From IMG/VR virus record IMGVR_UViG_2563366942_000017, positions 1 to 40,985 of that record: 40,985 bases of DNA; one strand, written 5' to 3'. Below are positions 20,451-35,883 of the stretch, piece after piece; positions within the stretch are counted from its first letter, which is position 1, and the number at the start of each line of letters is the position of its first letter. Both the position numbers and the translations under genes were made by a program. This DNA is from a virus. Its lineage: Duplodnaviria; Heunggongvirae; Uroviricota; Caudoviricetes. The notes beneath the pieces are model-generated. The model made no database searches. It was not told the origin of the DNA and saw nothing but the letters and a program-made list of their open reading frames with translations.

Positions 20451-21058
20451 CAGGACAACCTCGCAATGGTAAACTCGTCAACCGGTGGCTGTGGTTCCTG
20501 TGATTCATTCTGGCTATGCGAGCCAGCACTAAGAATCACGCGATTGTACATATTGAGGGCAAACGTACCGAGGTCTGCATTCCCAGTCAGCGCCATGTTA
20601 ATAGCTGCCGCAAGACGCCAGGCCAACGCCTCCATAAAAATGGCATCAAACATGTTCACATCTGAAACGCGAGAGACATACTTGAGCCATGCCTGAGGCT
20701 GGTCTGTGTAGATCAACTTTCCTGTTCCGTTGGTGTCTGCACCAACTTCGTACTGAACGCGCATTGATGCTGTTGGATTGCGTACACCAGGAAGCATAAT
20801 TTCAGTAATGCGCAGACAATCTGACGGGTACTGGTACGCATATTCCCAGTCAGGCGGTGGATTGCTCGTATCTGCAAGCGCCACGCGTTTGGTAGCAAAG
20901 TTCCAGTCAAAATCAGAAAGCACAGCATCACGGCAGGCCTCAAAGTGCAGCGAACATTCCCCCGCTTCCTTGCTGGCTTCCGTCAGGCTGTTAATGCTGC
21001 GGCTGTTGCCAATATTGGACAGCGCACGATTACAGATCTCTACTACAGAGGCCATCAC
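20450..21058 (-). CDS. Tail tubular protein A / adaptor (T7 gp11-like)
   Basis: 202 aa immediately upstream of nozzle gene, size and position as T7 gp11. Confidence 0.45.
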   Translation of the reverse strand: MMASVVEICNRALSNIGNSRSINSLTEASKEAGECSLHFEACRDAVLSDFDWNFATKRVALADTSNPPPDWEYAYQYPSDCLRITEIMLPGVRNPTASMRVQYEVGADTNGTGKLIYTDQPQAWLKYVSRVSDVNMFDAIFMEALAWRLAAAINMALTGNADLGTFALNMYNRVILSAGSHSQNESQEPQPPVDEFTIARLS

Positions 21059-21384
21059 TCACCTCCGTTACCGTACAGAGTTTCAGCCGCTGATTTTTCT
21101 ACATCCCCGGAAACAGGAGCGATCGCCATATCAGTGATCTGCAGATCGGCGCTGCGATTAACACCATCGTCAGTTTCTCTGGCAGACAGGCCTCGAATAA
21201 CAGCCTTTGCAGTTATCATCACTTCTGTTCCGACGCCCTGAGGTTGCGCCTTCAGCTTATTCAATGTGTCGTTATTCAGCGTGATGCACAGCCCCCACGG
21301 GTATTCATCGCGAGTTCTGGTTTCTCCGCTCTCATCCTGGTAGCTGTCAGTGCCGGTTTTGAGGTTTACGAGTTCCATATACAC
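21055..21384 (-). CDS. Hypothetical structural protein
   Basis: 109-aa ORF coupled to downstream tail gene. Confidence 0.4.
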   Translation of the reverse strand: MYMELVNLKTGTDSYQDESGETRTRDEYPWGLCITLNNDTLNKLKAQPQGVGTEVMITAKAVIRGLSARETDDGVNRSADLQITDMAIAPVSGDVEKSAAETLYGNGGE

Positions 21385-21390
21385 TCCTGC

Positions 21391-21410
21391 AATAAAGGGG
21401 CCGAAGCCCC
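21391..21410 (-). terminator. Intra-operon rho-independent terminator after head genes
   Basis: On minus strand GGGGC-ttcg-GCCCC hairpin followed by TTTATT. Confidence 0.5.
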
Positions 21411-21428
21411 TTGTCTGATTCGCGAGGC

Positions 21429-21773
21429 TTACACGCCCAGTTCTTTACGCTTATCTGCGATCTTCTCGCGGAGCGTTTCGGCTTTGGCGTTATGGTGTGG
21501 CTTCTCGTTAAAGAGCAATTCGTACTCTTCACGGAGCTTATCCAGTTCACCATCATCTGACACATCGTTGATGATTTTGGTGCTGGTTGCTGCCATTGAC
21601 ACATTTCCTGCAACTTTTGCTTTTGCCTGTCTGGCTGCATCGTTAACAGGTTCCAGTGCGCTACCAGGCTCACCTTCGTATTCGATTTCTGCCCCCTCCG
21701 GCCACAGTGTGTTATGGATATGAGAGAGGCGCAGAACGCGGTATCTTGGTTTCTCACCTGACATCGATATCAC
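21429..21773 (-). CDS. Hypothetical head-associated protein
   Basis: 114-aa ORF in capsid gene block. Confidence 0.4.
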   Translation of the reverse strand: MISMSGEKPRYRVLRLSHIHNTLWPEGAEIEYEGEPGSALEPVNDAARQAKAKVAGNVSMAATSTKIINDVSDDGELDKLREEYELLFNEKPHHNAKAETLREKIADKRKELGV

Positions 21774-21774
21774 C

Positions 21775-22212
21775 TTAACCAGTTACTTTTGAGCGGATCG
21801 GGTACGGCGTATTGGCATCAACATCCAGACTGATACCCGCAGTGAATTTGCCAGCCGTTAGTGGGCCAGTTGCGACGGAGTAGTTAACACGCAGATATCG
21901 CTGAACACCGGCTGGCACCTTTGCAGAAACAACTCGCTTACCTGCTGTCAGGGTGGCCTTTGCCAACGCACCACTATCATAAATAGTGGTCCAAGAGCTG
22001 TTATTCTCACTCGTTTGCAACTGGATGTTTACAGTTGCATCACCGCTTGCCGCGGCGGCTGTGTTAACCAGCGCCCAAAATTCAAGCGGGTAACCCACGC
22101 CGATATCACGACGTTTTCCGTCAATTGGACCGAGATCGATTACGTCAGTAGAAGCCGCGGTATCAGTTACCGCCTGTGCTTCGGAGAACATCAACAGTTT
22201 GTCGGTGATCAT
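21775..22212 (-). CDS. Capsid decoration/accessory protein candidate
   Basis: 145-aa Thr/Ala/Ser-rich ORF directly downstream of major capsid gene. Confidence 0.4.
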   Translation of the reverse strand: MITDKLLMFSEAQAVTDTAASTDVIDLGPIDGKRRDIGVGYPLEFWALVNTAAAASGDATVNIQLQTSENNSSWTTIYDSGALAKATLTAGKRVVSAKVPAGVQRYLRVNYSVATGPLTAGKFTAGISLDVDANTPYPIRSKVTG

Positions 22213-22263
22213 CTTCTTTCTCCATTAGTGGGTCTGTTACGACCCACAGGTTAATAACAGGCG

Positions 22264-23256
22264 TTACACCACGCGGGCTTCTGTTTCCAGAAGCGCATCA
22301 GTTTCACGGATTGGTACACCACGGAATGAAGTCCACCACTCGCCTTCAGTCTCTTTTACGCTGATAGCCAGAGATGTTTTCTCCAGAGACTGCAGATCAA
22401 GAGCCTGGCCTACAGTGCGGTTCATGTAGAACACCGGGCGGCCCATGCCACGGTTTGGAATGCGATGCAGTGCTTTAACCATCAACTTCGCAATATTTGC
22501 GGCAGAGGAAGGTTCTGAAAGATTGCTGACATCGATGTTTGCAATGCGAACAACATAACGCCAGTCACGCAGAGCAAGTCCGTTGTCCCATTTGTAATGG
22601 GTACGGTAGCCTTCGTACTTGCCGCCATTAGCATCTTCCAGTGTCACCTGGCCTTTATCTTCCATCTGGATGCCAGCCTTCTGCCCTTTCGGGAAGATGC
22701 CATGCACGGTGTTTTCGCCCCACACCACTAACCAGATTGAGGTGTTATCTGTACCCGTGCCACCAGCATCAATGATGTTCTGAGCATTACCCGCAGACAG
22801 GCTGGAATAGCGGGAGGACAGTCCCATAAACTGCTGAGGGTTAACGCTGGAATCACCATAAAACAACGTCTGCGCCATCTGCTGATTCATCGCTTCAATA
22901 AATGCACGGTCTTCAGACAGGCGGAATTCGGCGGTATTACCGTTCAGATCAGCCAGTGACTTATCGACTTCAGCATAGGTTTCCAGCATTCCAACGGAAT
23001 CGGTGACCTGCACTGTGGTTGATTTGCTTGGCTGTACGCCATAGTTCAGCAAACGCCAAGTGGCTGAAGGTAAACCAGAACGAATGGTGGTTCGGTGTCC
23101 GGTAGGAAGGTTCCCTTCGACAAAAGGCATATCCTGAAGGATCGGGTTAGTTTGACCGAGAAGCTCGATAATCTTATCGACTTTCCCGTTTGGATCGACG
23201 CGCTTACCCCAGTCAGCCAGCGTTAGCGCAGTTAAGCCTTTAACAGCCATTGTCAT
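22264..23256 (-). CDS. Major capsid protein
   Basis: 330 aa directly after scaffold gene and before small head genes; position and size as in epsilon15/T7-like head modules. Confidence 0.7.
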   Translation of the reverse strand: MTMAVKGLTALTLADWGKRVDPNGKVDKIIELLGQTNPILQDMPFVEGNLPTGHRTTIRSGLPSATWRLLNYGVQPSKSTTVQVTDSVGMLETYAEVDKSLADLNGNTAEFRLSEDRAFIEAMNQQMAQTLFYGDSSVNPQQFMGLSSRYSSLSAGNAQNIIDAGGTGTDNTSIWLVVWGENTVHGIFPKGQKAGIQMEDKGQVTLEDANGGKYEGYRTHYKWDNGLALRDWRYVVRIANIDVSNLSEPSSAANIAKLMVKALHRIPNRGMGRPVFYMNRTVGQALDLQSLEKTSLAISVKETEGEWWTSFRGVPIRETDALLETEARVV

Positions 23257-23264
23257 TTCCTCTC

Positions 23265-23966
23265 TTATTTGCCATAGAGCACTTCGGCCGCACTACGCTG
23301 GCCTTCATTACCACCGGTGACCATGCCATCTTCAGACATCGCCTTTCCGATTTTCACGAACGTTTTGACCAGATCAGGGTGATTACCCAGCCCGGTGGTG
23401 TTCAGATATTCTTTGAGTTCAGGTGTCCCGAACTGGTCAAGCGCACGCTGTGCGGCGCTAAGGTTAGAAATCAACTTGTCGCCACCGATTTCTTTGTCAG
23501 CTTTTACATCCGCAGCCCACTGCTCGGTTGTTTTCTGCCAGGCTTCTGCCTGGCGCTGCTGAACACCTGCCAGAATCTTCGGATAAGCATCAACCAGCTT
23601 TTGCGCTTGCTCGTTGGTCAGGTTAAGTTCTCGCGCCACCGGCTCGAATTCCGTCAACGCTTCTGTATCCAGCTCTACGCCTTCGGCAGCCTGAAACTCG
23701 TACTTCTCAGGCGCACCCTCTGGTTTATCGCCACCCTTTTTTTCATCCTGCTTATCGTTTTCAGGCTTTTTGTCATCAGCAGGTTTATCGCCATCAGCAA
23801 CAGGTTGTGGCTTATCACCTTCCTGTTGTGATGGATCACCAACTGGAGCAGGGGTATCACCTGCAGGCGCTGACGGTTCTGACGCAGCCGGAGCTGCTCC
23901 ACCATCGACTGGCTGCTCATTGCAAAGACGGCGATACAGCAAACGCTCAAATAAATTCATGATCAC
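23265..23966 (-). CDS. Scaffolding protein
   Basis: Acidic, Pro/Ala/Asp/Lys-rich low-complexity N-half with helical C-half; between portal and capsid genes. Confidence 0.55.
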   Translation of the reverse strand: MIMNLFERLLYRRLCNEQPVDGGAAPAASEPSAPAGDTPAPVGDPSQQEGDKPQPVADGDKPADDKKPENDKQDEKKGGDKPEGAPEKYEFQAAEGVELDTEALTEFEPVARELNLTNEQAQKLVDAYPKILAGVQQRQAEAWQKTTEQWAADVKADKEIGGDKLISNLSAAQRALDQFGTPELKEYLNTTGLGNHPDLVKTFVKIGKAMSEDGMVTGGNEGQRSAAEVLYGK

Positions 23967-24259
23967 TCCTGTTCACTGGCCTCTTTGGCCATCTTCAAAT
24001 ACTGTTCAGGGCAATGCGCCATAACGCGCTGAAACAGTTCCAGCGCCAGATTGCGTTGCCCCTCATTAAATGCCATTGCCATAGCATCCATCGGAGAGAT
24101 AGCGGAAAACACACGGCCTTTCTCCAGCACCGACCAGACAACGCGACGCCCCTGTTCACTGCTCATGACAAAGCGAATGTCATCAATTTCACGCTGTGCC
24201 ATGTCACGTTGCTTACGGGCGTTTTCTTCTTTCAGTTGATCGTCTTCGTAATCTGTCAT
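23963..24259 (-). CDS. Hypothetical protein between portal and scaffold
   Basis: 98-aa ORF, start overlaps portal stop (ATGA). Confidence 0.4.
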   Translation of the reverse strand: MTDYEDDQLKEENARKQRDMAQREIDDIRFVMSSEQGRRVVWSVLEKGRVFSAISPMDAMAMAFNEGQRNLALELFQRVMAHCPEQYLKMAKEASEQE

Positions 24260-25935
24260 TGTGATTGCCCACCCTGACCACTAACTGCATTCGCCATAGC
24301 TGACAAAACACTCGGATCCGAAGTTTTAGCTTCGCTTAGCGTCTTGGCGCCCTGTGCCGCCGCCATTCCCATCGCCATCATTTGTTGCTGCTGTTGCTGC
24401 TGTGCCCGTTGCTGGCGAGCCTGCTCAACCTGTTCCTGCGGAACAATGACGGTTGGAGACACTCCGGACATATCAGCGAATGCATCGATCGCCTGATCAA
24501 CGTTGAGTTTGTCGAGAGCTTCTGGTTTCGCTTGCGCAAGTTGACCAATGAAGTTAACCGTGGACGCCAGACTGGACAGGCCGATAGACTTCTGCGCCTG
24601 AGCCATGACGGAAATGTATTCGACCTTCAGGGGCATACCTTCCATCGCGTCAGGCGGTGGCGGCAGCATGTTTTTACGCACCATCATCGAGAAAGCGCGG
24701 TCAATGAGAGGATTAAGACATTCGTCGTTCAGGCGCTCCAGAACCGGCCCCAACATCAGAAGTTTTTCTTCTTTCATTTCGATCACCGCTTCCACAGGCA
24801 TCGAGCGGGTATTGATGTTCTGCAACATCATGAACAGATCGACAAAGTAGGCGCTGTTAATGATTTGACGAGTGTCCTGAATGTCTGCCACCAAATCTGC
24901 TGTACTGGGGTTAACCAGATAAGCAGGCCTGAAACCATCCTGACCAGTAATCTGATCGATATACGTGATGTCGCCAGGAAGAAGGGAGGCACGCTGATTC
25001 TTGAGGGAAGTCGGAGCAACCATCGGCGGATTGGTGGCTTTATCAATCAACTGCGACTTGCGCTTCTGGAGAAGCTGCAATGCCTTAACAGGTCCAAGCG
25101 CCAGCATACCAGGGCATGATGATCCATAAACATCTTCGCCATTAACTTCCCAGCGCGGAGCCATAATTGGAAACTCATCGAATCCGGACTCACGCAACAA
25201 CTTGTCGTTATCGCCACCAACCTCGTAATAAACCGATTTGAATGGCTTGTTCTTGCTATCCAGCTTCGATGTATCGCGGTCAATGTTCGGGTAAACCGAA
25301 TGCATCACTTCAATCCACTTCTCGTAGGTGCCGCTTTCCCACATGCTTTTTACGGATTCGCTGACGTTATTTAGCCCGAACTCCTGAACAAGCTGACGAA
25401 CAGTCATAGAGAACTTGCGAAAACAGGTGTCCACACTGCCACGAGGTGAGTTAGCCAGGTAGTAACTGCCTATCGGGAATGGCATTGTGCGAATGATGTC
25501 CTCATCATCCTCCAGCACTGCCATTGCACCAGTGCTGTATGTGCCTAGGCTTCCGTATAACTGCGGCAGTGACTGATAGAGATTCGACTTATTGAACATA
25601 TCGTTCATGCGGTTCTGCACCGCCTCAAGCCACAACTTAACAGGGCCATAATCCATCATTTCAGGATCTGGCGTAGCCAGGCGAAACCACGGACGCGCGG
25701 GGCTTGTGATGCCTGACATCATGCCGCTGGCGAGAGTGCGCGCCGCCATAGTCCCGGTAGAATCAATAATGCGTGTATTGCGTCGATCGTTACGGTTGAC
25801 CTCAGAAGTCAGAAAGCGGGAACCACGCGGGTTGATGTAATCACTCAACTCGCGCCAGTGCGGCTCGAACGATTGACGCTCGCTTTCAAGTTGTGCGAAC
25901 TGTTTGTTCAATCGCTCTTTAGTTGTTTCCGCCAT
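24256..25935 (-). CDS. Portal protein (T7 gp8 / head-to-tail connector type)
   Basis: 559 aa, poly-Gln acidic C-terminal tail, size and position typical of podovirus portal; follows terminase large subunit apart from the tRNA moron. Confidence 0.75.
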   Translation of the reverse strand: MAETTKERLNKQFAQLESERQSFEPHWRELSDYINPRGSRFLTSEVNRNDRRNTRIIDSTGTMAARTLASGMMSGITSPARPWFRLATPDPEMMDYGPVKLWLEAVQNRMNDMFNKSNLYQSLPQLYGSLGTYSTGAMAVLEDDEDIIRTMPFPIGSYYLANSPRGSVDTCFRKFSMTVRQLVQEFGLNNVSESVKSMWESGTYEKWIEVMHSVYPNIDRDTSKLDSKNKPFKSVYYEVGGDNDKLLRESGFDEFPIMAPRWEVNGEDVYGSSCPGMLALGPVKALQLLQKRKSQLIDKATNPPMVAPTSLKNQRASLLPGDITYIDQITGQDGFRPAYLVNPSTADLVADIQDTRQIINSAYFVDLFMMLQNINTRSMPVEAVIEMKEEKLLMLGPVLERLNDECLNPLIDRAFSMMVRKNMLPPPPDAMEGMPLKVEYISVMAQAQKSIGLSSLASTVNFIGQLAQAKPEALDKLNVDQAIDAFADMSGVSPTVIVPQEQVEQARQQRAQQQQQQQMMAMGMAAAQGAKTLSEAKTSDPSVLSAMANAVSGQGGQSQ

Positions 25936-25949
25936 TTCAATGACTCCGG

Positions 25950-26156
25950 TTACTGACCAAGCAGCGTTTTACCGCTGGTATTAGCGGTTGATGTGTCGCC
26001 CTGAGAACCGGTAAGCAGCGTAGAACTACGACCAGCAGCAGCGCGACGGCGACGTGTTTCTTCGTCGCGGGCATCAACAACGGCGGCATCCTGCTCCTGT
26101 GGTGCTGCCTGAACTTCTGGTGTTGCAGGCACTGATGGTGAGCTACCCATGCACAT
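25950..26156 (-). CDS. Small hypothetical protein upstream of portal
   Basis: 68-aa ORF with GGAG SD; low complexity; weak. Confidence 0.25.
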   Translation of the reverse strand: MCMGSSPSVPATPEVQAAPQEQDAAVVDARDEETRRRRAAAGRSSTLLTGSQGDTSTANTSGKTLLGQ

Positions 26157-26245
26157 ATCAATGACTCCGTACGCAATTAAATTATTACCAATTTAACCAC
26201 ATATGATTTATTTATCGTAGATAGTTGACATTTAACGCACGAATT

Positions 26246-26260
26246 ATTACCTTTCAGGTA
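26246..26260. promoter_or_regulatory. Operator palindrome TTACC-N5-GGTAA (site C)
   Basis: ATTACCtttcaGGTAAG; a TTGACA hexamer lies 17 nt upstream on plus strand. Confidence 0.5.
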
Positions 26261-26582
26261 AGTAAAGGGTTCATTCCGGTTACTAACCTGACTGGCTTGT
26301 CGTTAAATTGAACAGGTGGAGTGAGCTTTTATTTTGAGCAGTACGGCGTATGGCACATGCGCCGATAGCGGTCTGGATACGTTTAAGGGGCACCCTCCCT
26401 TGCTCGGGCAAACGAACCAGGTAGCCGGAATGTGCAAGTCGAGCGGTTTTATTCCGCGCACGGGGATTCACCATCCCGGCGATTCGGTGTGACGCCTCGG
26501 AAGAGACGAGGGTACAACGATGAGAGCATTTATGGAGCCGCGACAAAGTGTGGCGCCTTAACAGGCTAAGTGCTCTCAGCGT

Positions 26583-26659
26583 TGTGGCATTAGCTCAGTT
26601 GGACAGAGCAACCGCCTTCTAAGCGGTTGGTCGCAGGTTCGAATCCTGCATGCCACGCC
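26583..26659 (+). tRNA. tRNA-Arg (anticodon UCU), phage-encoded
   Basis: 77 nt; acceptor stem GTGGCAT/ATGCCAC, D-arm AGCTCAGTTGGACAGAGC, anticodon loop CTTCTAA (UCU), T-arm GCAGGTTCGAATCCTGC, discriminator G, encoded CCA. Confidence 0.85.
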
Positions 26660-26858
26660 AGAATCACGCCTAAGGACCGTGATGCCAGAAGTTCCAGGGG
26701 CTTGGCGGTGATGGTTTCCCTTGAAGGGCTATCACCGCCCTTTTTACAGCAGGACGCCATTGCGATGACTTCATGCTGTAAACCAGTACAGCCACGGAAG
26801 GCATAACTCATTGCTTCCAGTTCGACCGGTTCGCCGGGCATTTTTTTAAGGTGAGATC

Positions 26859-27233
26859 ATGAACGACCAGCAAATCGAAAAAGAAATCGTTGAGAAAGGC
26901 AAAACGGCACCGCGTGTAACACCCGAGAAAATTGAAGGCCTCATTTGCAGTGAGCATTTTTTCACTGCTGCGCAGGGTGACCACCAGGCTAAAGAAGATG
27001 ACCTTATTTATAATCCGGAGCCTTATGTCGAAGCCACCCCTGATGCTCTGCACCTTCTCACTTTCTGCGTACTGGTGCTGAAGAATGGCTTCACCGTCAC
27101 CGGAGAGAGCGCCTGTGCAAGCCCGGAAAACTTTGATGCAGAAATTGGTCGGAAGATTGCCCGGCAGAATGCTGTAAACAAAATCTGGATGCTCGAAGGT
27201 TACTTGCTGAAGCAGAAGCTAAGCGAGCAATAA
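26859..27233 (+). CDS. Phage moron protein, possibly N4 gp49 / Sf6 gp66 family
   Basis: SD GGTGAGA; 124 aa; motif FTVTGESACASPENFDAEIGRKIA recalled as characteristic of that family (unverified); followed by terminator. Confidence 0.4.
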   Translation: MNDQQIEKEIVEKGKTAPRVTPEKIEGLICSEHFFTAAQGDHQAKEDDLIYNPEPYVEATPDALHLLTFCVLVLKNGFTVTGESACASPENFDAEIGRKIARQNAVNKIWMLEGYLLKQKLSEQ

Positions 27234-27252
27234 CACCGTGACATGTCACAAA

Positions 27253-27280
27253 CAGCCAGCCGATGAGCTGGCTTTGTTTT
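27253..27280 (+). terminator. Rho-independent terminator
   Basis: CCAGC-cgatgag-GCTGG hairpin followed by CTTTGTTTT. Confidence 0.5.
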
Positions 27281-27323
27281 ATCCTCATCAGAGGATATCA
27301 ACGACATTATCCCAACCAGCGGA

Positions 27324-28799
27324 TTAAGCATAGGGATCGTAATCTGTGATGGCCTTGCCTTGCTGGTTCTGCTGCCCGGGAATTTGCAGACGCTTAGACA
27401 CAGGGAACGCAAACGTCAGCAGTAGCGCATCGCCTTTACCCGGCGAACGCCCAATCCGCTCCTTGATATCTTCCTTCGGTTCGATAACGATTTTACCATC
27501 CACTCGAACTTTGTACTCTGCCGCCGACAGGTCGTCTGCTGTTTCCTGGTCATCCAGCATGCCGCCCAGCCTCAGCCATGTCTTGCATGAATTGAACATC
27601 TCCCCACGCTTGTTGAGCATCTGCGGGTCAGTAGACGCGCCACCGAACGGAACAAGTTGCCATGTACGACCCCATCCGTCACCGATTGACTTCAGACCGG
27701 TTCCGTAACCGAAGTCGATGAACACCGCGTCAGCCTGATACTGGTCTTCAAAGTCAGCGATACGCTTCGCCATAATCAGATCGTCGGTAGTCTTGTTGCC
27801 AGTCCACAGCACCTTACTGTGTAGCCCCTGCCGCAGGTATATCACCGCGTCATCAACGCCTGAATATGCTGGGTCAACACCGATTATCACCGGAGCATGC
27901 GCCACCTGCGCAGCGGTTACCACCCGTTTCATTGCCTCATCAGTAAGACCGGTAGGGATAAACTGCAATTCAGATGCATCAGGGAATATGCCGCGCACAC
28001 GGATTTTAACGAAGTCGCTGTCTTCCCCGTAGTCATCAACCCATTTCTGCAACTGCTGTTTGTTAGTGCCTTCCACCGTCCGGCTGTCAATCTGCGCAGT
28101 TTTCCAGCGGTGTTTATATTTGCGGAAACATTCGCGGAAACGCCCGGTGTTACGTGTAGGGTTTCCGAACGCCACCCAGATAATCTCAGTGTCTTCGTCC
28201 GTAAGCGCACCCTCAGCAACTTCCCACACCAGATCCGCAATGTTCGACGCTTCATCGAATACCACGATGATGCGTTTGCGCTCGTTGTGTAGTCCGGCGA
28301 ATGCCTCAGTGTTGTGCTCAGACCAGGGGATTGCGTCAGCTCGCCACCGCTTGTCGTGCCCAGGATCATTGCTGTACATCGCGGTAGCGGTACAGGTAAA
28401 CCAGTCTTTCGTGATAGCAAGGTTCGACCACTTGATAATTTCCGGCCAGGTCTTCGTTCGTAGCTGGTTGTCGGTGTTGGCGGTCACCACGACCTTACAA
28501 TCCTCGCAAGTGGACATGCCCCAGTTGATCAGCATTGAGATGAATGCGGATTTACCAATACCGTGACCAGAAGCGCGTGCCAGCATAAGCGGCTGATAGC
28601 GCGTCGCTGGATTCTGCAGGTGATCACGTATCTCTCGGAACGCATCAGCCTGCCACTGACGTGGGCCGGTAGCATGTGCCAGTTCAGTCCCTTCTTCCCC
28701 CCACGGGAACGCATAGAGGGCATAGCCAAGCGGATCGTGAGTGAACCCTGCAATATCCTCGATCAACTGCTCTTCAGGAGATAACGCTGTATCTGTCAC
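27324..28799 (-). CDS. Terminase large subunit
   Basis: 491 aa; Walker A-like GHGIGKS, ATPase and C-terminal nuclease-like regions; immediately downstream of small subunit with 4-nt overlap. Confidence 0.8.
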   Translation of the reverse strand: MTDTALSPEEQLIEDIAGFTHDPLGYALYAFPWGEEGTELAHATGPRQWQADAFREIRDHLQNPATRYQPLMLARASGHGIGKSAFISMLINWGMSTCEDCKVVVTANTDNQLRTKTWPEIIKWSNLAITKDWFTCTATAMYSNDPGHDKRWRADAIPWSEHNTEAFAGLHNERKRIIVVFDEASNIADLVWEVAEGALTDEDTEIIWVAFGNPTRNTGRFRECFRKYKHRWKTAQIDSRTVEGTNKQQLQKWVDDYGEDSDFVKIRVRGIFPDASELQFIPTGLTDEAMKRVVTAAQVAHAPVIIGVDPAYSGVDDAVIYLRQGLHSKVLWTGNKTTDDLIMAKRIADFEDQYQADAVFIDFGYGTGLKSIGDGWGRTWQLVPFGGASTDPQMLNKRGEMFNSCKTWLRLGGMLDDQETADDLSAAEYKVRVDGKIVIEPKEDIKERIGRSPGKGDALLLTFAFPVSKRLQIPGQQNQQGKAITDYDPYA

Positions 28800-29392
28800 T
28801 GATTGCCATCCTGACGTTCTTTCAGTCTCTTCCTGGCTGCCGCTATGCGATCAGCAATTGTCACATTCACATTAACATCCAGGCGTTCTTTGAACGCGTT
28901 GACATCAACATGCTTACCAATCAGCTCAAGGTTCTTCACCTTGTCAGGCCATTTAATTTTTTTGAGGATTGTCTCTATTGAATCCTCGTTCATGTTCATG
29001 ATGGTCGATGACAGATCAAAGCCACTAAGCGTAGTGCGCCAGATTTTCGGCCACTCACGGATTGGTTTAAGGCTCCCATCGTCGTTGAGGATGTCGATCA
29101 CGTCCATCTGGTCGATCTCCACCAGGCGCATGAGAACGTAATCAGCACTGACACGCATTCGTTTGTTGCGCTCCTCCATCAACTCGGCAATCCGTTTTTG
29201 AATGCGTTCATCGCGCATCATGACACTGGCTTTAACTGCCGCTGTATTTGGGGAGAATCCTGCGTTAATCGCTGCCTGAGTCTGGTTTTCAGGCGTTTTG
29301 ATGTATGACTGGCAATAAGCCTCCTGCATTGCTGTTAGTGGCTTAAATTGCGTTGATTTGCGTTTATAGGTTTTAGGTTCAGCAGGCATCAT
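28796..29392 (-). CDS. Terminase small subunit
   Basis: About 199 aa from internal ATG 29392 (ORF-track N-terminal extension is Thr-rich and spans operator repeats); basic helical protein upstream of large subunit. Confidence 0.6.
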   Translation of the reverse strand: MMPAEPKTYKRKSTQFKPLTAMQEAYCQSYIKTPENQTQAAINAGFSPNTAAVKASVMMRDERIQKRIAELMEERNKRMRVSADYVLMRLVEIDQMDVIDILNDDGSLKPIREWPKIWRTTLSGFDLSSTIMNMNEDSIETILKKIKWPDKVKNLELIGKHVDVNAFKERLDVNVNVTIADRIAAARKRLKERQDGNQ

Positions 29393-29409
29393 AACCACCG
29401 TGGTAATAG

Positions 29410-29424
29410 TTACCGTTGTGGTAA
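29410..29424. promoter_or_regulatory. Operator palindrome TTACC-N5-GGTAA (site H) at terS start
   Basis: TTACCgttgtGGTAA; flanked by imperfect copies TAACCaccgtGGTAA (29392-29406) and GGTAATAGTACC. Confidence 0.55.
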
Positions 29425-29435
29425 TAGTACCATGC

Positions 29436-29461
29436 AAAATAAAGCCGCCATAGTTGGCGGC
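29436..29461 (-). terminator. Rho-independent terminator upstream of terminase genes
   Basis: Minus strand GCCGCCA-acta-TGGCGGC followed by TTTATTTT. Confidence 0.55.
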
Positions 29462-29510
29462 AGTATTCAAAACCCGTCAAATTCATCATGCATAATCTAC
29501 TCGTGACATG

Positions 29511-29852
29511 TCACACTATTAATTTCGTTTCATGCCAGCCTTTAGTCACCCAGCATTGTGAGTCACCATTACACGGACATGAATTAACTGGAACTCTCTC
29601 GCCGCACTTACCGCAACGTGTTCTGCTGATCGATTTTATACGCCCGTGCACGCGTGCATCATCCTGGCGGATCAGTAACGCTATATACTCACCAAATTCG
29701 TAAGGCGCACGCCCGGGGCGACGCGTGGCACAGTTACGCTCCAGAATTTCAATTTCCTGAGCATCAAGCACAATCTCCAGCTTACGCACACCAGATGCAG
29801 CTTGTCTGGCTCTCTGAGCGGCTTTGCGCTCTGCTGCTGATTTAGCCATCAA
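29511..29852 (-). CDS. Hypothetical protein with C-terminal Cys-rich zinc-ribbon-like motif
   Basis: 113 aa; CGKCG...CPC motif; last gene before terminator and terminase block; possible late regulator (speculative). Confidence 0.4.
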   Translation of the reverse strand: MMAKSAAERKAAQRARQAASGVRKLEIVLDAQEIEILERNCATRRPGRAPYEFGEYIALLIRQDDARVHGRIKSISRTRCGKCGERVPVNSCPCNGDSQCWVTKGWHETKLIV

Positions 29853-30144
29853 TATTTACCTTTATCGCGAACACCTTTACCGGTTTATCACCGAAGTGCG
29901 GATGTGTGATTGTCTTTATTTCATATCCGTTATACGGGACGTCAATTCTGCGACTGAAGTCTTCGCGCTTCGGATATCCCTTTGTGATAATCAGGCGGTA
30001 ATACTTACGGTTAACGAGGCGCTTATTCCAGTAGTCATTACACAGGCGATACTCTTCCGTTTTCTCCCCGCGAATCATGGCATCGAAGTATTCACCTTTA
30101 ACGGCAAGTTGCAGGTTAGCCATTACCTCACCTCCAGTCTCCAT
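29842..30144 (-). CDS. Hypothetical protein, possibly ASCH/PUA-like
   Basis: About 95 aa; AVKGEYFDAMIRGEKTEEYR resembles ASCH GxKxxExR motif; alternative start at 30123. Confidence 0.35.
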   Translation of the reverse strand: METGGEVMANLQLAVKGEYFDAMIRGEKTEEYRLCNDYWNKRLVNRKYYRLIITKGYPKREDFSRRIDVPYNGYEIKTITHPHFGDKPVKVFAIKVNIDG

Positions 30145-30383
30145 ACCGCCTGACCAATCCGGCTGGCATGGGTATCTTTGGATACTGTTCCGTCTTTAGC
30201 CAGCTCCATAAGAATTTTGCGCAAATCTGCCGAACGCCATTCTTCATCAGGAAATTCCTTCTCCATTGCCAACCGCAGATTCCAGGTTGCCATCCTGAAT
30301 GGATATTCCCCGCCGAGAGCTTTATCTTGCAGGGCAGCCCGGGAACGCATCACCTGCAAAACCTTCTCTTTTACATCCATCAT
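30123..30383 (-). CDS. Hypothetical protein
   Basis: 86-aa ORF coupled to neighbours in nin-like region. Confidence 0.4.
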   Translation of the reverse strand: MMDVKEKVLQVMRSRAALQDKALGGEYPFRMATWNLRLAMEKEFPDEEWRSADLRKILMELAKDGTVSKDTHASRIGQAVWRLEVR

Positions 30384-30997
30384 TTCACCTCCTGCGGTGG
30401 CTCCGGTAGCGGCATCCAGTGGGTTACTTTCAATGCCGGTTCTTCCCCATCGTCAGTAACTGCCCACCATTTGTTTCTCGAACAATCGTAATACCCTTCG
30501 AAGGTATCGCACTCAGTCCAGCCGTAAGACTTACCCCAACACCAAACATATTGTTTATCGTTCGGCATTCGCTCACTACAGCTTATCCAACCATCCGGAG
30601 TTACCGGAGAGTTGCCAGACAGCTTGTTCAACTTGTAAGTCTGGCTTACAGGTTTGACACCGTGAAGCATGGTGGCGCGGCAGGCGTTCCAGCCTTCATC
30701 AAAACCGACTATGCCATTATTTAAAGTCGGACGAGCATCTGGCACCACCGGCACTGGCTTGGCTATATATAGCGGCTGAACATACCAGCCCTTTGATAAC
30801 CAACTGTCAGCAATGTTTTTACTCCTGGTTATTGCTGGAATACCTAAGCCATTGTCTGAATGTAGCCATGCCACCGGCTCCTCTTCCAGCGATGCCAGTG
30901 CAATTCGTGCCAGTTCCATTTGTTCGCCACGAGTAAGTCCGTTATCAAGCGGATTTTTAATGAATAATTCGATACGTTCTTTGGTTATAGCGCTCAT
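30380..30997 (-). CDS. DUF551-type phage protein
   Basis: C-terminal W-x-PLPEPP motif characteristic of DUF551 proteins. Confidence 0.55.
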   Translation of the reverse strand: MSAITKERIELFIKNPLDNGLTRGEQMELARIALASLEEEPVAWLHSDNGLGIPAITRSKNIADSWLSKGWYVQPLYIAKPVPVVPDARPTLNNGIVGFDEGWNACRATMLHGVKPVSQTYKLNKLSGNSPVTPDGWISCSERMPNDKQYVWCWGKSYGWTECDTFEGYYDCSRNKWWAVTDDGEEPALKVTHWMPLPEPPQEVK

Positions 30998-30998
30998 A

Positions 30999-31607
30999 TC
31001 ACTCTCCTTTGATGCGAATGCCAGTAGCGCGGATTGCAGCGATGACCTCAGAAACTTTGTATGCCATTACCGTTTGGTAATCCTCGTGAAAATCTGTTCG
31101 ATGAAGCATGCTGCTACGTTCTGGGAGCAGTATTTCCCGATCCTCCAGTTCTGCAATGCGCTTCTCTGCGGCTTCCAGCTTCTCGCGCATATCGTCAACG
31201 TACTCGACCAGAGAACCGCCAGCAGGAATTTCGCACTCCTCGACCAGTTGGAAGTAGATATCAGCTGCGGCCCGTGTGTTGCTATGCCTAGCGTCGCCCA
31301 TCTCACCTTCACGAAGAGCATCGCGTTCGGCGGTAAGATTGGCTATTTTGCTGTCTTTGCCTTCCAGCTCAACGCGCAGCCTCCCTACCGTTAGCGCAAT
31401 TTCCTCGTTCTCCTGGTCGCGGCGTTTGATGTATTGCTGGTTTCTTTCCAGTTCATCCAGCAGTGCCAGCGCGATATCTGGCGAAAAGTGCTTCATAAAA
31501 TCGTTAAGCGCATTAATTCGCTGATCGAAGGGCATTACAGGTGCTTCACCAGCAATTTTTGTTTTTTCAGCGATTTCACGAAGCTTTTGATAATCAATCT
31601 TGCTCAC
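30999..31607 (-). CDS. Coiled-coil hypothetical protein (Ead/Ea22-like?)
   Basis: 202 aa, Glu/Arg/Leu-rich helical repeats. Confidence 0.4.
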   Translation of the reverse strand: MSKIDYQKLREIAEKTKIAGEAPVMPFDQRINALNDFMKHFSPDIALALLDELERNQQYIKRRDQENEEIALTVGRLRVELEGKDSKIANLTAERDALREGEMGDARHSNTRAAADIYFQLVEECEIPAGGSLVEYVDDMREKLEAAEKRIAELEDREILLPERSSMLHRTDFHEDYQTVMAYKVSEVIAAIRATGIRIKGE

Positions 31608-31911
31608 TGGTTGCCTCCTTTGCTGGGCTTTCTAACTTCTGAGTGGTTGTATCAAACTCAAACAACTTAACCACGTCATCAAACAGGACATAATCGCCAT
31701 CAGAATCTTCAGTCATGTCAGCGCCACAATCCTGACCGCACGAGTCACAACCATCCATATCAAGCTCGTATCGCTTCAGGTTTGCGATATTTGATAAATT
31801 CAGCGCCAGTACAGCTAGGTCATAAACCTCGTCAGCGGTATATCCTGCACCATGTCCATACATTTCAATGCGGGATATGATTTCTTCTACCCGTTGTTTT
31901 GTGATTGTCAT
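31594..31911 (-). CDS. Hypothetical acidic protein
   Basis: 105-aa ORF, overlaps neighbours by a few codons. Confidence 0.4.
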   Translation of the reverse strand: MTITKQRVEEIISRIEMYGHGAGYTADEVYDLAVLALNLSNIANLKRYELDMDGCDSCGQDCGADMTEDSDGDYVLFDDVVKLFEFDTTTQKLESPAKEATSEQD

Positions 31912-32369
31912 TTTTGCTCACCACTCTGTTCTTCCAGAAAAATACGCATAGCCTCAAGCATCTCTTCGGTGTCATACGGAGACAGCTTGTCACGCAGGAT
32001 GTGTTCAATGCTGTTAATGAACTTGCGGATTGCTTTGCGTTCAATTTCAGCCAGGAAAGCATCGGTGGCTGGCATATTTCCTGTTGCCTTCATGGCCTCC
32101 AAAATAACCAGAACGCCATCTCGCCCAACCACCTCAGCGATAACCTCAGTGTTGTCGCCAACAACATCGCAGAATGCCTGAACTGCCTTACGAGCCAGCT
32201 CATTCTCCACTGCCAGCGCATTAGCACGCACCAGTTGCACTTCCAGTTGCGTTGCCAAATCGCTGATCAGCTTTGCCACACTGCGCATATCAACGGCACC
32301 ACATTCTGCTTTCAGTTCCGAAGCCATCTCATGCCCGGCGGAAACTAACCCTTTGATATTACTTTCCAT
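31908..32369 (-). CDS. Hypothetical protein
   Basis: 153-aa ORF in nin-like block. Confidence 0.4.
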   Translation of the reverse strand: MESNIKGLVSAGHEMASELKAECGAVDMRSVAKLISDLATQLEVQLVRANALAVENELARKAVQAFCDVVGDNTEVIAEVVGRDGVLVILEAMKATGNMPATDAFLAEIERKAIRKFINSIEHILRDKLSPYDTEEMLEAMRIFLEEQSGEQK

Positions 32370-32430
32370 CTTTACCTTCGCTTATCCACATAACTTATTG
32401 ATTACATTGATAACTAAAAAGATCGTCGAT

Positions 32431-32775
32431 TCAGAACTCTTCGATGTTCCAGCCACCACCTGCTTTCTTTGGCTTAACCGTTACCCCGATGATTCGGAAC
32501 GGATACTGATCTGCGGCGACTTTGGTTTTCACCCTGGCGTCGTCGGTCCAGAAACCTTTCACTTCGTGCAGTTCCATCTCGCCGGTGGCGAGCATCACAG
32601 CGAAATCTGGCGTATAGAACGTGTTGTCAGCTAACCGCAGCTTGATACCCTCGAATCGATACCAGACGATTTCTCCTGCACGTTTACGCATCTCAAGGTG
32701 CTGACAATACGCAGATTCTGTTTTGTTCATCTGGCCTGTTTTGAGTCGACCAAGAGCCTGTATCTGTTTTCTCAT
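32431..32775 (-). CDS. DUF1064-like phage protein
   Basis: 114 aa; pattern recalled from lambdoid nin-region proteins; operator D1 overlaps its SD. Confidence 0.45.
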   Translation of the reverse strand: MRKQIQALGRLKTGQMNKTESAYCQHLEMRKRAGEIVWYRFEGIKLRLADNTFYTPDFAVMLATGEMELHEVKGFWTDDARVKTKVAADQYPFRIIGVTVKPKKAGGGWNIEEF

Positions 32776-32778
32776 GAT

Positions 32779-32793
32779 TTACCCCTGAGGTAA
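32779..32793. promoter_or_regulatory. Operator palindrome TTACC-N5-GGTAA (site D1)
   Basis: TTTACCcctgaGGTAAT 4 nt upstream of the start codon of gene 32431..32775. Confidence 0.55.
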
Positions 32794-32840
32794 TTAAAAA
32801 CCACATAAGACACGAAATCAATAGATTTTAGAATATTTTA

Positions 32841-32855
32841 TTACCTCATAGGTAA
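32841..32855. promoter_or_regulatory. Operator palindrome TTACC-N5-GGTAA (site D2)
   Basis: ATTACCtcataGGTAAT; TTGATT-17-TTTAAT promoter-like hexamers lie between D2 and D1 on minus strand. Confidence 0.55.
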
Positions 32856-32892
32856 TTATTGAGACGTAAAAAAATGCGCTATCGCGCTGGTA

Positions 32893-33693
32893 TTACTTGA
32901 TAAATCCTGCCGCCTTTCCCCGCCTGTATTCCTCCATCAGCCACTGCGCCGGTGTTATTCCCCCCAGGGTAGCGGCGTTAGGCATACACCCGAAACTTCG
33001 CCCTGGTGGATGGTAAACGTCTCTCCCTGTGTCCGGAGGCGTACTCATGGGTTCTGACTTTGCCTGTATGCTGATCACCGGATCGGGTATCTGCTGTCCG
33101 GAAGCCACCTTTTTCGCCCAATCATCAAGCAGCCTGCGCGCGTGTTTCTCAACCTCAATCTCGCTAAGCTGGCGCTGATACATTGCACGGCGGGTATCAC
33201 ATACGACCCAGTACATAACCGGATGCCGCCACGGGAATCTTTCGGGACCACCAGGATATAAACTTTTTTCCTTGCTGTACCGGTGAAACTCCGCCATCAC
33301 ATCGTCAATGGTGACGCCAAGAACCATCTTGCTGTCTTTACACCACTTGATAAATTTCCCTGGCGACGGCCAGAACGGAGATTCACTGGCGCGGGCGTGG
33401 CGCATACCAGCAGAAACCTGTTCACGGGTTCGGATCCCCCCTTCGGCAAACGCAGCAATCCACTGCTGTTTTGCAGCAACTTCCTGCTCTGGCGTCTTCA
33501 GGTTGGTTACCACTGCCGCCGGAAACAGTTGTTTCAGCTGTTTGAAAAGGGCATCAACAAGCCTCTCTGCTGACATGTTCACTACGTTGTCATTGTTGGT
33601 GTACTGATGCTCATAACCTGACATGCGAGAAAGGGCTTCTCCGTCACGGTTTTGTATTGCGGTAAAAACGTTGTTCACAAGAAATCCTCCCAC
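32893..33693 (-). CDS. Replication protein P-like (helicase loader)
   Basis: Similarity recalled to lambda P (WxAAF.E.GI.T.EQV.AGMR.AR....F.PSPG.F..WC); start uncertain (in-frame ATGs also at 33624 and 33576). Confidence 0.6.
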   Translation of the reverse strand: MGGFLVNNVFTAIQNRDGEALSRMSGYEHQYTNNDNVVNMSAERLVDALFKQLKQLFPAAVVTNLKTPEQEVAAKQQWIAAFAEGGIRTREQVSAGMRHARASESPFWPSPGKFIKWCKDSKMVLGVTIDDVMAEFHRYSKEKSLYPGGPERFPWRHPVMYWVVCDTRRAMYQRQLSEIEVEKHARRLLDDWAKKVASGQQIPDPVISIQAKSEPMSTPPDTGRDVYHPPGRSFGCMPNAATLGGITPAQWLMEEYRRGKAAGFIK

Positions 33694-34490
33694 GCTTCAG
33701 GGCTGTTCCAGTGCGGAACGTTGTTATCAGGTAATGTTGATTGCTTCTGTCTGCTAATCTGCAGCCGCCTTGCCAGCTTCTGCTCCCACTGTGCCTGATG
33801 GTATGCCTTACCCTCAGCCATCCAGTAAATTCTGAACTCTGCAAGTTCCTGTGCCGTTGGCAGACTGTCCAGGTAGATTCCCTGCAATGAGCTTTTCCGA
33901 AGAAAGTCATCTGATGGCTGCCATTGTTCATGCATGACAAATTTGCCTAATTGCCCTGGCCCACCAGGAGGAACAAAGTTATTCATCACGGCGTTGTTTG
34001 CACCGGGGTCATGAGGCACAGAATCCCCGCTTTTTGTCCTGCTCTCCCTCTCTTGGTTAAATGACTGGTTATATGACTGGTTCTGGATCCCGTTTTTGGG
34101 ATCATTCAACATCCCGTTTTTGGGATCATTCAACATCCCGTTTTTGGGTATATTCCCGTTTTCGGTAACATTACCGTTTTCGGGTTCATTACCCCCTTCC
34201 CGGTTGCCTTTAATGTTCCCGTTTTTGGTTATATTAAGAGAGAAAACCCGCACTCTTTTCGTCGCTCCCTTTCTCTCTCCGGTATCTGAAATAAGCCCCA
34301 TTTTCATGAGCGATATAAGCCCGGCCTGCACGGTTTTTTTGTTCAGGCAAGTGTCTTTAACGAGGCGTTCTATGCTGGGGTAGCAGAGGTTATATTCATC
34401 GGCTCTGTCAGCCATCGAGAGCAGTATGAGCTTTAATGACGAGCTACCTGGATCTGTCTCCCAGGCCCAATCTGTTGCATGTCTGCTCAT
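33675..34490 (-). CDS. Replication initiator O-like protein (contains origin iterons)
   Basis: N-terminal winged-helix-like region; central residues NGNI/PKNGMLND repeats are translations of DNA iterons; immediately upstream of P-like gene. Confidence 0.6.
   Translation of the reverse strand: MSRHATDWAWETDPGSSSLKLILLSMADRADEYNLCYPSIERLVKDTCLNKKTVQAGLISLMKMGLISDTGERKGATKRVRVFSLNITKNGNIKGNREGGNEPENGNVTENGNIPKNGMLNDPKNGMLNDPKNGIQNQSYNQSFNQERESRTKSGDSVPHDPGANNAVMNNFVPPGGPGQLGKFVMHEQWQPSDDFLRKSSLQGIYLDSLPTAQELAEFRIYWMAEGKAYHQAQWEQKLARRLQISRQKQSTLPDNNVPHWNSPEAWEDFL
34087..34235. repeat. Iteron array (putative replication origin) inside O-like gene
   Basis: Six direct repeats of consensus (A/C)CCGTTTT(T/C)GG: two 24-bp units ATCCCGTTTTTGGGATCATTCAAC, then four shorter units. 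Confidence 0.65.
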
Positions 34491-34505
34491 GATTAATCTC
34501 CGCTA

Positions 34506-34706
34506 TCAGCTTGAATGTTGTGGGGAGGAATTAATCATGATCTGCTTAATCTCTGCCCTGATACGACGGTTTGATTCCATGGTGCACTCAACACAGTGTC
34601 CGTTGTAAACCCAGCGTTCACTGTCATGTCCGTGCTTACATGTTTTTCCGGTGTAGTAGCGTTTAAGTCCGCGCTTTGCGGCATCAATACGTGTAATGAT
34701 TTCCAT
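34506..34706 (-). CDS. Small Cys-rich (zinc-finger-like) protein
   Basis: Internal ATG 34706 with AGGG SD; motif CKHGHDSERWVYNGHCVEC. Confidence 0.35.
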   Translation of the reverse strand: MEIITRIDAAKRGLKRYYTGKTCKHGHDSERWVYNGHCVECTMESNRRIRAEIKQIMINSSPQHSS

Positions 34707-34786
34707 GGTAAGCCCTGTTATTAGTATTGGGATTACGGTTATTTTGTGCTGACACAAAAAAAAGATCAACCATATTTGGTTTTTTA

Positions 34787-34801
34787 TTACCTTTGAGGTA
34801 C
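34787..34801. promoter_or_regulatory. Operator-like palindrome (site E, imperfect)
   Basis: ATTACCtttgaGGTACG, one mismatch in right half. Confidence 0.4.
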
Positions 34802-34810
34802 GAATAGATA

Positions 34811-34834
34811 TGAAAAGACCGCCGGATGGCGGTC
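34811..34834 (-). terminator. Rho-independent terminator after cro-like gene
   Basis: GACCGCC-atcc-GGCGGTC hairpin with TTTTCA on minus strand. Confidence 0.5.
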
Positions 34835-34856
34835 TACAGAGGGTTGTGGCTGGATA

Positions 34857-35087: not shown

Positions 35088-35123
35088 AGCTATTGCCTGA
35101 TATTTATTTCAGATAATAAATAT

Positions 35124-35872: not shown

Positions 35873-35883
35873 TGCCTATTCGA

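Follow-up and report, generated by a model that had tools for sequence, protein, structure and literature searches.

What is made from the untranslated DNA that precedes a phage tRNA gene, on the strand opposite to that of the genes around it? The question was raised by a locus in a 40,985-nucleotide (nt) stretch of IMG/VR virus record IMGVR_UViG_2563366942_000017 (Caudoviricetes; positions 1 to 40,985), hereafter the window, which belongs to a phiV10/epsilon15-like podophage of the genus Uetakevirus. An earlier note, made from the sequence without database searches, had described an opposite-strand unit between terminase and portal. The unit is present as described: a plus-strand cassette at 26225-27283 sits between the minus-strand terminase gene and the minus-strand gp3/portal genes. 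It is a single early cassette running from a promoter through terminator T3, in the order promoter, pseudoknotted RNA of ~245 nt, tRNA-Arg(UCU), conserved hairpin, terminator T1, T2-like terminator, Acb4-family gene and T3 (Table 1). Comparative analysis indicates that 26341-26585 is a conserved pseudoknotted RNA and represents an unannotated family in epsilon15-like, lambdoid and P1-like phages of Enterobacterales.

Comparative evidence for a conserved RNA fold

The whole conserved unit (26341-26585, ~245 nt) consists of a core and a closing hairpin, P6. The untranslated stretch had previously been placed at 26280-26580, which is close to these borders, the core occupying 26341-26525 and the closing hairpin reaching 26585. 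A first alignment of ten segments from a DNA search already displayed compensatory changes. Loci (numbered with the prefix L) were gathered with a conserved 19-mer of the core; 24 came from species-representative genomes and more than 120 from IMG/VR, giving 63 representatives with less than 95% identity. Among the 24, L021 was a chance match and L033 a short Bacillota-labeled metagenome bin contig, and the others were from Enterobacterales. Invariance of the 19-mer in this set is by ascertainment. In the blast-derived set, the 19-mer was kept in all nine true homologues and was absent only from the epsilon15 row, because that part of the core is lost there.

Helices P1, P2, P4 and P5 and the pseudoknot were named in A1, a MAFFT alignment of 54 sequences. 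As evident from A1, 98.0% of cells formed standard pairs, compared with 30-51% when the partners were slid; 11 of the 25 pairs varied on both sides, and none of 500 shuffles matched the observed covariation score. A covariance model, R1, was built from A1, and an alignment A2 was also made. R1 retrieved 101 core copies from 100 sources, corresponding to 83 distinct sequences. Among these 83 homologues the paired fraction was 98.3% (27-50% when slid), with 13 double-change pairs and 229 such cells. A mutual-information scan of all column pairs revealed no Watson-Crick covarying pair outside the model; the top pairs were the model's own, including the pseudoknot pair, which was C-G in 58 sequences and A-U in 18. 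The U-G pair at 32:98 occurred in 82 of the 83. Since the frequent G.U pairs would be A.C mismatches on the other strand, the structure was assigned to the plus strand, which is also the strand of the promoter. The core carries many invariant unpaired bases.

P6 closes the unit with a fold of -36.6 kcal/mol (z -6.5) in the window. It was 94-98% paired, with compensatory changes, over 27 distinct flank pairs, and its 3' strand extends over tRNA positions 1 and 2.

Further long-range pairs were considered, namely GCAC of the P1 loop with GUGC of the conserved block, GCC of the block with GGC after P4, and CUUG of the P2 tip with CAAG. They are plausible, but covariation is silent on them: because the columns do not vary, the pairs are neither supported nor refuted. 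For GCC:GGC, a divergent copy at L053 3986-4155 was not compensatory. L053 is an IMG/VR contig with two core copies (4793-4960 and 3986-4155), of which the second is divergent (122.8 bits) and has changes within the otherwise conserved 19-mer. A motif YUCCUUG or CCCUUGA was seen in the P2 tips of most members and again in T1 loops (window 26721-26728); a helix between its CUUG and the core's conserved CAAG is possible, and these columns are invariant.

Searches of Rfam 15 did not identify the element. With E up to 10, region 26100-26900 gave only the tRNA and tRNA look-alikes and nothing on the core; the whole window at gathering score gave only tRNA, C4, isrK and sar; and six relatives searched with E up to 0.5 gave no match across the core. 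The covariance-model search suggested in the earlier note thus returned no Rfam family on the element, and the window core scored 151 bits (E about 1e-39) against R1. No antisense target for 26336-26700 was found elsewhere in the window, where the longest match of 11 nt was at chance level.

A small protein-coding gene, as some GenBank records annotate on either strand, is an explanation that we discount almost entirely. The window does have open reading frames (ORFs) of 45-87 amino acids (aa) here, and some records place coding sequences over the element. However, when a conserved reading frame was sought in the 83 homologues, the best frame was open in only 26; element lengths were spread across all three residues modulo 3, P2 and P3 varying by non-multiples of 3; the annotated strands and frames differ; and the substitutions compensate helices. 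The previous statement that no convincing ORF lies upstream of the tRNA therefore agrees with the comparative data. Hypothetical proteins are annotated over the RNA or tRNA in phiV10 (phiV10p04, L002 3491-3742), mEp460 (gp37, L004 2943-3311), Tyrion (gp54, L010 2905-3066) and BUCT709 (WCS67766, L008 2823-3113), on different strands and in different frames; these public annotations are probably spurious calls.

The earlier note had also called the stretch GC-rich and hairpin-rich, and had suggested a processed leader or small RNA. The GC content of 26300-26600 is 0.555-0.56, which exceeds that of the promoter region (0.40-0.44) and of the flanks (about 0.5), but the enrichment is only mild. Hairpin richness was borne out, and because the helices covary it is not due to chance. 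The suggestion of a noncoding RNA was right in direction; membership in a large conserved pseudoknotted family had been missed.

Distribution and genomic contexts

Region 26100-27320 was 96-98% identical to phiV10, O157 typing phages 9 and 10, TL-2011b and others. In a sensitive DNA search, window segment 26343-26587 had ~83% identity to lambdoid phages cdtI, mEp460 and Stx2c phages, ~80% to P1/P7, and ~70% to Klebsiella, Enterobacter and Salmonella phages. At megablast sensitivity, 1064 of 5426 complete Escherichia coli genomes (about 20%) carry the core, in 965 chromosomal and 276 plasmid places, and none of the rows listed had an annotated feature beneath the match.

Three contexts were observed. 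In epsilon15-like phages the unit lies between terL and gp3/portal. In lambdoid prophages, with at least eight immunity types represented, the core follows a same-strand cI-type repressor gene by 90-700 nt; eight different repressors of this type (HTH_3 plus Peptidase_S24) were found upstream of it. In P1/P7 it is part of the ban operon, which C1 controls, with tRNA-Ile on one side and ban on the other, and is without P6. In relatives, the usual order is promoter, core, at least one H hairpin (ACAAC, variable tip, GUUGUGG), T module (tRNA-like GUGGUG...CACCAC), AUCACG...CGUGAU hairpin, T1, ~90-nt spacer, T2 and ribosome-binding site (RBS)/start. P6 is the H module of the window, and the T slot is filled there by the genuine tRNA-Arg, starting within GUUGUGG. 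Among 156 loci, tRNA-Arg(UCU) is directly 3' of the core in 29; a tRNA(CAT), annotated Ile, is directly 5' of it in 19 P1-like loci; and 106 have no true tRNA adjoining the core.

The lambdoid arrangement was clearest in mEp460, where the cI stop codon is followed by a terminator, OL-type operators with a PL-like promoter (TTGCAT-N17-TATCTT) and, ~47 nt further on, the core. The core directly past a PL-like promoter is therefore in the early-left leader. The records of mEp460 and Stx2a_1447 lack an annotated N gene, the early-left genes stand behind T1 (-19 to -21 kcal/mol), and between T1 and the early-left operon there is no room for another promoter. The leader from cI/PL to the first early-left gene is ORF-less over ~0.7-0.8 kb in Stx2a_1447 (L161, 3347-4126), L005 (Stx2c) and mEp460 (L004, 2846-3568). 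Leaders of Stx-converting and SfV-like lambdoid phages hold the core RNA plus a strong terminator, and no N gene is annotated.

In epsilon15 (L003, 2805-2909) only P1 and the start of P2 are left. A deletion between the TTCCCTTGATGCT copy of the P2 tip and that of the T1 loop removed the remainder of the core together with the T/tRNA slot and half of T1.

A strongly covarying RNA of P1, of Stx2-converting and other lambdoid prophages, and of epsilon15-like phages thus went unannotated. The conserved 19-mer occurred in no paper, and no description of the RNA was found in the literature on phiV10, epsilon15, put, Stx2c/N and candidate structured RNAs, although a catalogue of 10,006 candidate structured RNAs of phages (PMC10690425) may hold an unnamed listing.

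Promoter and operator upstream of the core

The core has a promoter-proximal, repressor-controlled position. The palindrome TTACC-N5-GGTAA occurs 15 times in the window, compared with 0.7 expected (at most one mismatch), and is the operator of the phage repressor; at the homologous place, the epsilon15 record has an annotated repressor site. The earlier note had placed an operator before the tRNA and the untranslated stretch, and this copy (26247-26261) was found on the -10 hexamer of a sigma-70 promoter. The same promoter, TTGACA-N17-TACCTT, also stands upstream of the core in many relatives. In the 25 of 60 representatives with a good promoter, the distance from the end of the -10 hexamer to P1 is 7-97 nt. 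The 5' leader between promoter and core folds only weakly in the window (-22.1 kcal/mol, z -1.7); its epsilon15 equivalent is annotated as an RNase III site, and Tyrion, L024 and L126 have intact H modules at this position.

Operator copies span 2942-35960 (e.g. 6292, 6672, 7711, 26247, 29410, 32779, 32841, 35172, 35884 and 35946), and two of them, at 29392-29424, lie just within the 5' end of the terS ORF as called. An isrK-like RNA (6723-6799, 70.5 bits), a C4 antisense RNA (6818-6904, 79.5 bits) and sar (9753-9820, 44.8 bits) were matched by Rfam models. The area of these RNAs together with operators 6292, 6672 and 7711 looks like a P1/P7-type immI-like antirepressor control region.

Possible role of the RNA in early transcription

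The position of the core is that of nutL and N in lambda and of putL in HK022. HK022, a lambdoid phage without N, achieves processive antitermination by RNA alone, through its put RNA (putL/putR) (PMC9378689). We tentatively propose that the core is a put-like leader which acts in cis, depends on host factors and enables RNA polymerase to pass terminators, a reading that is possible although short of probable. The core would fold on leaving RNA polymerase, near the promoter, and would act in cis with host factors only; that polymerase would then pass the intrinsic terminators T1/T2. The tRNA and the anti-defence or early-left genes would then be expressed only from the derepressed early promoter. 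In function the core would correspond to HK022 put RNA, with a fold unrelated to that of put. RNase P would process the transcript at the tRNA or tRNA-like module, and RNase III at the long P6 duplex.

Read-through by the core is something that we infer from gene order only. The leader reading is favored because something in the PL leader of N-less lambdoid phages must perform antitermination and because the core is the only leader part common to all loci. Since P1/P7, lambdoid and epsilon15-like phages share the core but no regulators, its partner should be a host component. That the cargo sponges (PF13876/Acb4 and PF11195/Tad2-like) must be made early was also counted for a leader, as was the rrn-type boxA that three relatives have directly after the core. 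A sense-strand hairpin of -16 kcal/mol or lower with a U-tract was present within 1 kb downstream in 47 of 58 representatives; at this cut the density of terminator-like sites was 0.99 per kb compared with a background of 0.40, a modest 2.5-fold excess. A strict perfect-stem version of the scan missed most T1 hairpins, and a relaxed version had a high background. If the proposal is true, the core could explain how early-left transcription passes strong terminators in N-less lambdoid phages, some of which carry Shiga toxin genes; entry into their early-left operon, also in Stx2a- and Stx2c-converting phages, would depend on the core, and so would early expression of the anti-CBASS (cyclic oligonucleotide-based antiphage signaling system) and anti-Thoeris sponge genes in epsilon15-like phages.

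Several observations weigh against a put-like leader. No cargo gene follows the full RNA unit of L130, and in SopranoGao the array continues up to the end of the genome, so a unit need not have anything to antiterminate. The P1/P7 copy, which has no P6, comes after tRNA-Ile at ~2.4 kb from the ban promoter, and no terminator was seen before ban. Epsilon15 is without the core, yet T2 and the gp49/66 gene are retained. The tRNA, an RNase P site, and an 18-base-pair (bp) duplex are located between core and T1, and cleavage there would untether a put-like RNA. Read-through of T3 in the window would yield RNA antisense to terL. Core and HK022 put are dissimilar, and R1 found nothing in the HK022 immunity region (20000-36000, E up to 10), in a scan that seeks core copies and not put. 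Finally, terminators downstream discriminate weakly, because any RNA gene is expected to precede one.

An RNA freed from its transcript and acting in trans would accommodate part of these observations, and we regard it as the main rival, only slightly less likely than the leader. Here cleavage by RNase P where the tRNA or T module begins, possibly along with RNase III cuts in the stems, would free a stable noncoding RNA of ~245-320 nt; the early transcript would be a small "stable RNA operon," T1 would merely end the RNA gene, and the freed RNA would act on a host machine or defence system. In this it would be similar to GOLLD and ROOL, which are linked to tRNAs in phages, or to T4 rnaC/rnaD. 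Consistent with such processing, the P6 3' strand (GUUGU) always adjoins a tRNA or tRNA-like GUGG... acceptor stem, tRNA-Arg stands just 3' of the core in the 29 loci and a tRNA just 5' of it in the 19 P1-like ones, and the variable tips hold tRNA T-arm-like and 16S-like pieces, as in a stable-RNA operon. Units free of protein genes exist (L130 and SopranoGao, L011), the invariant unpaired bases and pseudoknot suggest a specific partner, and the cassette is shared with anti-defence genes. But an antisense target of at least 12 nt was lacking in the window, and the early-left operon's passage of T1 in lambdoid phages would be left unexplained. Moreover, in L096 and P1 the core directly precedes an RBS and ORF and is therefore a 5' untranslated region there, not a free RNA. 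We further consider, with equal weight and as somewhat unlikely in either form, that RNA-only, host-factor-dependent processive antiterminators have a second class, represented by the core and structurally unrelated to the first, or that the RNA itself is an early anti-defence decoy.

Less room is left for a passive leader, i.e. a tRNA precursor leader, a 5'-end stabilizer or a "linker" that promotes module exchange and has no function of its own. The same variable tip recurs in phiV10-like, lambdoid and Klebsiella loci, and epsilon15, with its deletion between TTCCCTTGATGCT copies, is viable without the core. This explanation is nevertheless improbable: the 19-nt block is present in all blast-found relatives, 106 of the 156 loci have no adjoining true tRNA, and compensatory changes in five helices and the pseudoknot, across three unrelated phage types and many immunity types, point to selection on the folded RNA itself. 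The size, pseudoknot and invariant joining regions also recall large aptamers, and the core is a 5' leader upstream of terminators and of cargo genes for cyclic-nucleotide binding, as would be expected of a riboswitch-like sensor of a host metabolite or immune nucleotide signal that controls elongation into the tRNA and cargo. Such a sensor is very improbable, however, because the 3' part of the core is clear of any terminator or RBS, T1 is 180-500 nt away with variable modules between, the downstream genes are mutually unrelated, and no Rfam riboswitch matched.

Comparison with known phage RNAs

Like put, the core lies just downstream of a repressor-controlled early promoter and upstream of intrinsic terminators. 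The promoter-proximal layout is found in the N-less lambdoid relatives mEp460 and Stx2a_1447, and that of the window is analogous; a cis-acting leader needing only RNA polymerase and host factors is what is proposed for the core. Put has ~70 nt and two stem-loops, whereas the core has ~170-185 nt, five helices and a pseudoknot. It is present in one copy per phage, with no copy on the PR side, and unlike put it also occurs in P1 and epsilon15-like phages and beside tRNAs.

With lambda nut and rrn leaders the core shares its position, which in PL leaders matches that of nutL. The loop of P5 (GAAGAGA) recalls the lambda nutL boxB loop GAAGA, and UGCUCUUU, the H-module 3' strand inside the P6-type stem, resembles boxA in 17 of 62 representatives. 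The boxA consensus (UGCUCUUUAACAA or CGCUCUUA) had no match in the window. In contrast to nut, the two lambdoid genomes checked have no annotated N-type protein, the boxA-like strand forms part of the P6 duplex, and the conserved part is a large folded domain rather than a linear box plus small hairpin. An rrn-type boxA (TGCTCTTTAACAA, at most two mismatches) directly after the core was found in 3 of 62 representatives, and boxA was for this reason rejected as a general family feature. These three loci (L115, L059 and L072) have a small hairpin and then the rrn-type boxA; in L115 it is exactly TGCTCTTTAACAA and lies 129 nt after the conserved 19-mer.

GOLLD and ROOL are large ornate RNAs of phages and prophages, with structures reported in 10.1101/2024.12.08.627333. 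The core resembles them in being a complex, conserved, phage-borne fold with variable inserts and tRNA linkage. GOLLD and ROOL adjoin or enclose tRNAs. They are, however, 500-800 nt long and come from Firmicutes and other non-enteric lineages, whereas the core is smaller, enterobacterial and promoter-proximal and has no Rfam match.

The P1/P7 C4 and P4 CI immunity RNAs (Rfam C4 clan) are likewise small RNAs within a longer early or immunity transcript, from which they are cut with RNase P involved. P1 carries both C4 RNA and the core, as does the window, with its C4 RNA at 6818-6904. C4/CI are antisense RNAs of ~70-90 nt with defined targets; unlike them, the core is without a target of at least 12 nt in the window and without model similarity. 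The stable RNAs C and D of T4 (rnaC, rnaD; ~120-140 nt) lie in a tRNA gene cluster and are co-transcribed and co-processed with tRNAs. They are not promoter-proximal leaders, unlike the core, and we know of no sequence relation between them and the core RNA. Thus, the RNA is closest to put/nut leaders by position and presumed role, and to GOLLD/ROOL by its link to tRNAs and its ornate fold. Both the tRNA and the Acb4-family gene belong to known kinds, and the RNA is outside the Rfam, put, nut and C4 families.

The tRNA and the cargo gene

ARAGORN found one tRNA in the whole window. The canonical tRNA-Arg(UCU) of the earlier note was confirmed by ARAGORN and by an Rfam tRNA score of 73.3 bits (gathering score, 29). 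Its acceptor stem had been described as unlike that of host argU: compared with argU of E. coli K-12, 62 of 77 positions are shared and 15 differ, mostly by compensated changes in the acceptor and anticodon stems. In the window AGA is used 5.6 and AGG 4.3 times per 1000 codons, which is higher than in E. coli. The tRNA may decode rare AGA/AGG codons; equally, it may replace a tRNA targeted by host defence, a reading left open by the anti-defence cargo that the unit also carries. A phage-borne rather than attachment-site tRNA, as had been supposed, is in line with its place within a phage transcription unit; relatives integrate at guaA (PMC9782041), and free phage genomes have the tRNA at the same site.

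The gp49/gp66-like gene was recognized correctly in the earlier note and matched Pfam PF13876 (Phage_gp49_66), but the Acb4 identity of the family had been missed. In a 2024 study, PF13876 was equated with Acb4, sponges for CBASS cyclic nucleotides (PMC11722364). The window protein matched the SPO1 Acb4 structure (PDB 9e4w) directly but weakly (E 0.004, residues 56-109). By family membership the ORF at 26859-27233 is assigned to the Acb4 anti-CBASS sponges, and binding of cyclic nucleotide signals with inhibition of CBASS is predicted. The gene behind T2 is variable: PF13876 in the window and many relatives, PF11195 (Tad2-like) in L009 and L120, small proteins without a Pfam match elsewhere, and no gene in the slot of L130. 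From these family assignments the cassette appears to be an early, repressor-controlled counter-defence slot, and in epsilon15-like phages it would combine counter-defence and a phage tRNA with control of early expression at the RNA level.

Terminators and exchangeable modules

Table 1. Features of the plus-strand cassette and flanking genes in the window
Feature	Position	Strand	Remarks
Portal gene	24256-25935	-	
gp3-like small ORF	25950-26156	-	
Early sigma-70 promoter	-35 TTGACA 26225-26230; -10 TACCTT 26248-26253	+	N17 spacer; read from sequence
Repressor operator palindrome TTACCTTTCAGGTAA	26247-26261		Overlaps -10 hexamer
5' leader, ~80 nt	26262-26340	+	Degenerate copy of H hairpin module
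Structured RNA core, 185 nt	26341-26525	+	
P1	26344-26364		Loop GGCAC
P2	26372-26376 with 26417-26421		Variable three-way tip
Conserved 19-mer GGTAGCCGGAATGTGCAAG	26420-26438		
P3	26443-26457		Variable
P4	26463-26477		
Pseudoknot	26469-26472 with 26486-26489		P4 loop with strand after P4
P5	26495-26511		Loop GAAGAGA
P6 / H module	26514-26585	+	~18-bp stem ACAACGAUGAGAGCAUUU / AAGUGCUCUCAGCGUUGU; variable Y-shaped tip
tRNA-Arg(UCU)	26584-26660	+	Encoded CCA; ARAGORN Arg(TCT), Rfam RF00005
Conserved hairpin AUCACG-CCUAAGGAC-CGUGAU	26663-26683	+	After tRNA or T module in most relatives
Terminator T1	26704-26745 (hairpin 26704-26739)	+	14-bp GC-rich hairpin plus CUUUUU; -22.9 kcal/mol
Conserved spacer, ~80 nt	26746-26823	+	Between T1 and T2, among epsilon15-like phages
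T2-like terminator	Hairpin 26824-26839; U7 tract 26841-26847	+	Weakened by A.G mismatch; directly before RBS
RBS AAGGTGA	26848-26854	+	
124-aa ORF, PF13876 (Phage_gp49_66)	26859-27233	+	118.1 bits (cut-off 27), E 2.4e-34
Terminator T3	27254-27283 (hairpin 27254-27273)	+	Ends unit, faces terL 3' end; annotated terminator in phiV10
Large terminase gene (terL)	27324-28799	-	

Homologous T1 hairpins are carried by relatives. T2 is GCCCnnUUCGnnGGGCAUUUUUUU in most of them, and intact T2 of the form GCCCnn-UUCG-nnGGGC-AUUUUUUU was seen in L018, L024, L010 and L088; in epsilon15-like loci it is always followed by an RBS and start codon within 10-20 nt. The spacer between T1 and T2 might be a separate small RNA, or the cargo gene might have an unrecognized promoter there.

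An Arg-rich 23-aa peptide in the T module of mEp460 (MNAQADARKTLQLLRKRAVRRGN) looked N-like at first sight. It was rejected, the segment being a covarying hairpin (GCGCA/UGCGC, GCACA/UGUGC, GCCCA/UGGGC and GGCGG/CCGCC) in which the frame end varies.

Pieces resembling other stable RNAs were noticed in the modules. The T-module insert at L130 3971-4017 (AGCTAGATGGTGAGGTAATGGCTCACCATGGCGACGA) matches positions 172-218 of the small-subunit rRNA model (E 2e-7); this 16S-like fragment lies inside the phage RNA unit and recurs in the T modules of L099 and L126. The H-module tips of L024, L126 and L130 contain tRNA T-arm-like hairpins (GGTTCGAnTCC), and that of L130 has an almost complete tRNA-like fold without an ARAGORN call. 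In the Klebsiella phage SopranoGao (L011, 2436-3360) the core heads a ~1-kb array of alternating H and T modules, which has its own promoter and no protein gene and extends to the end of the linear genome record.

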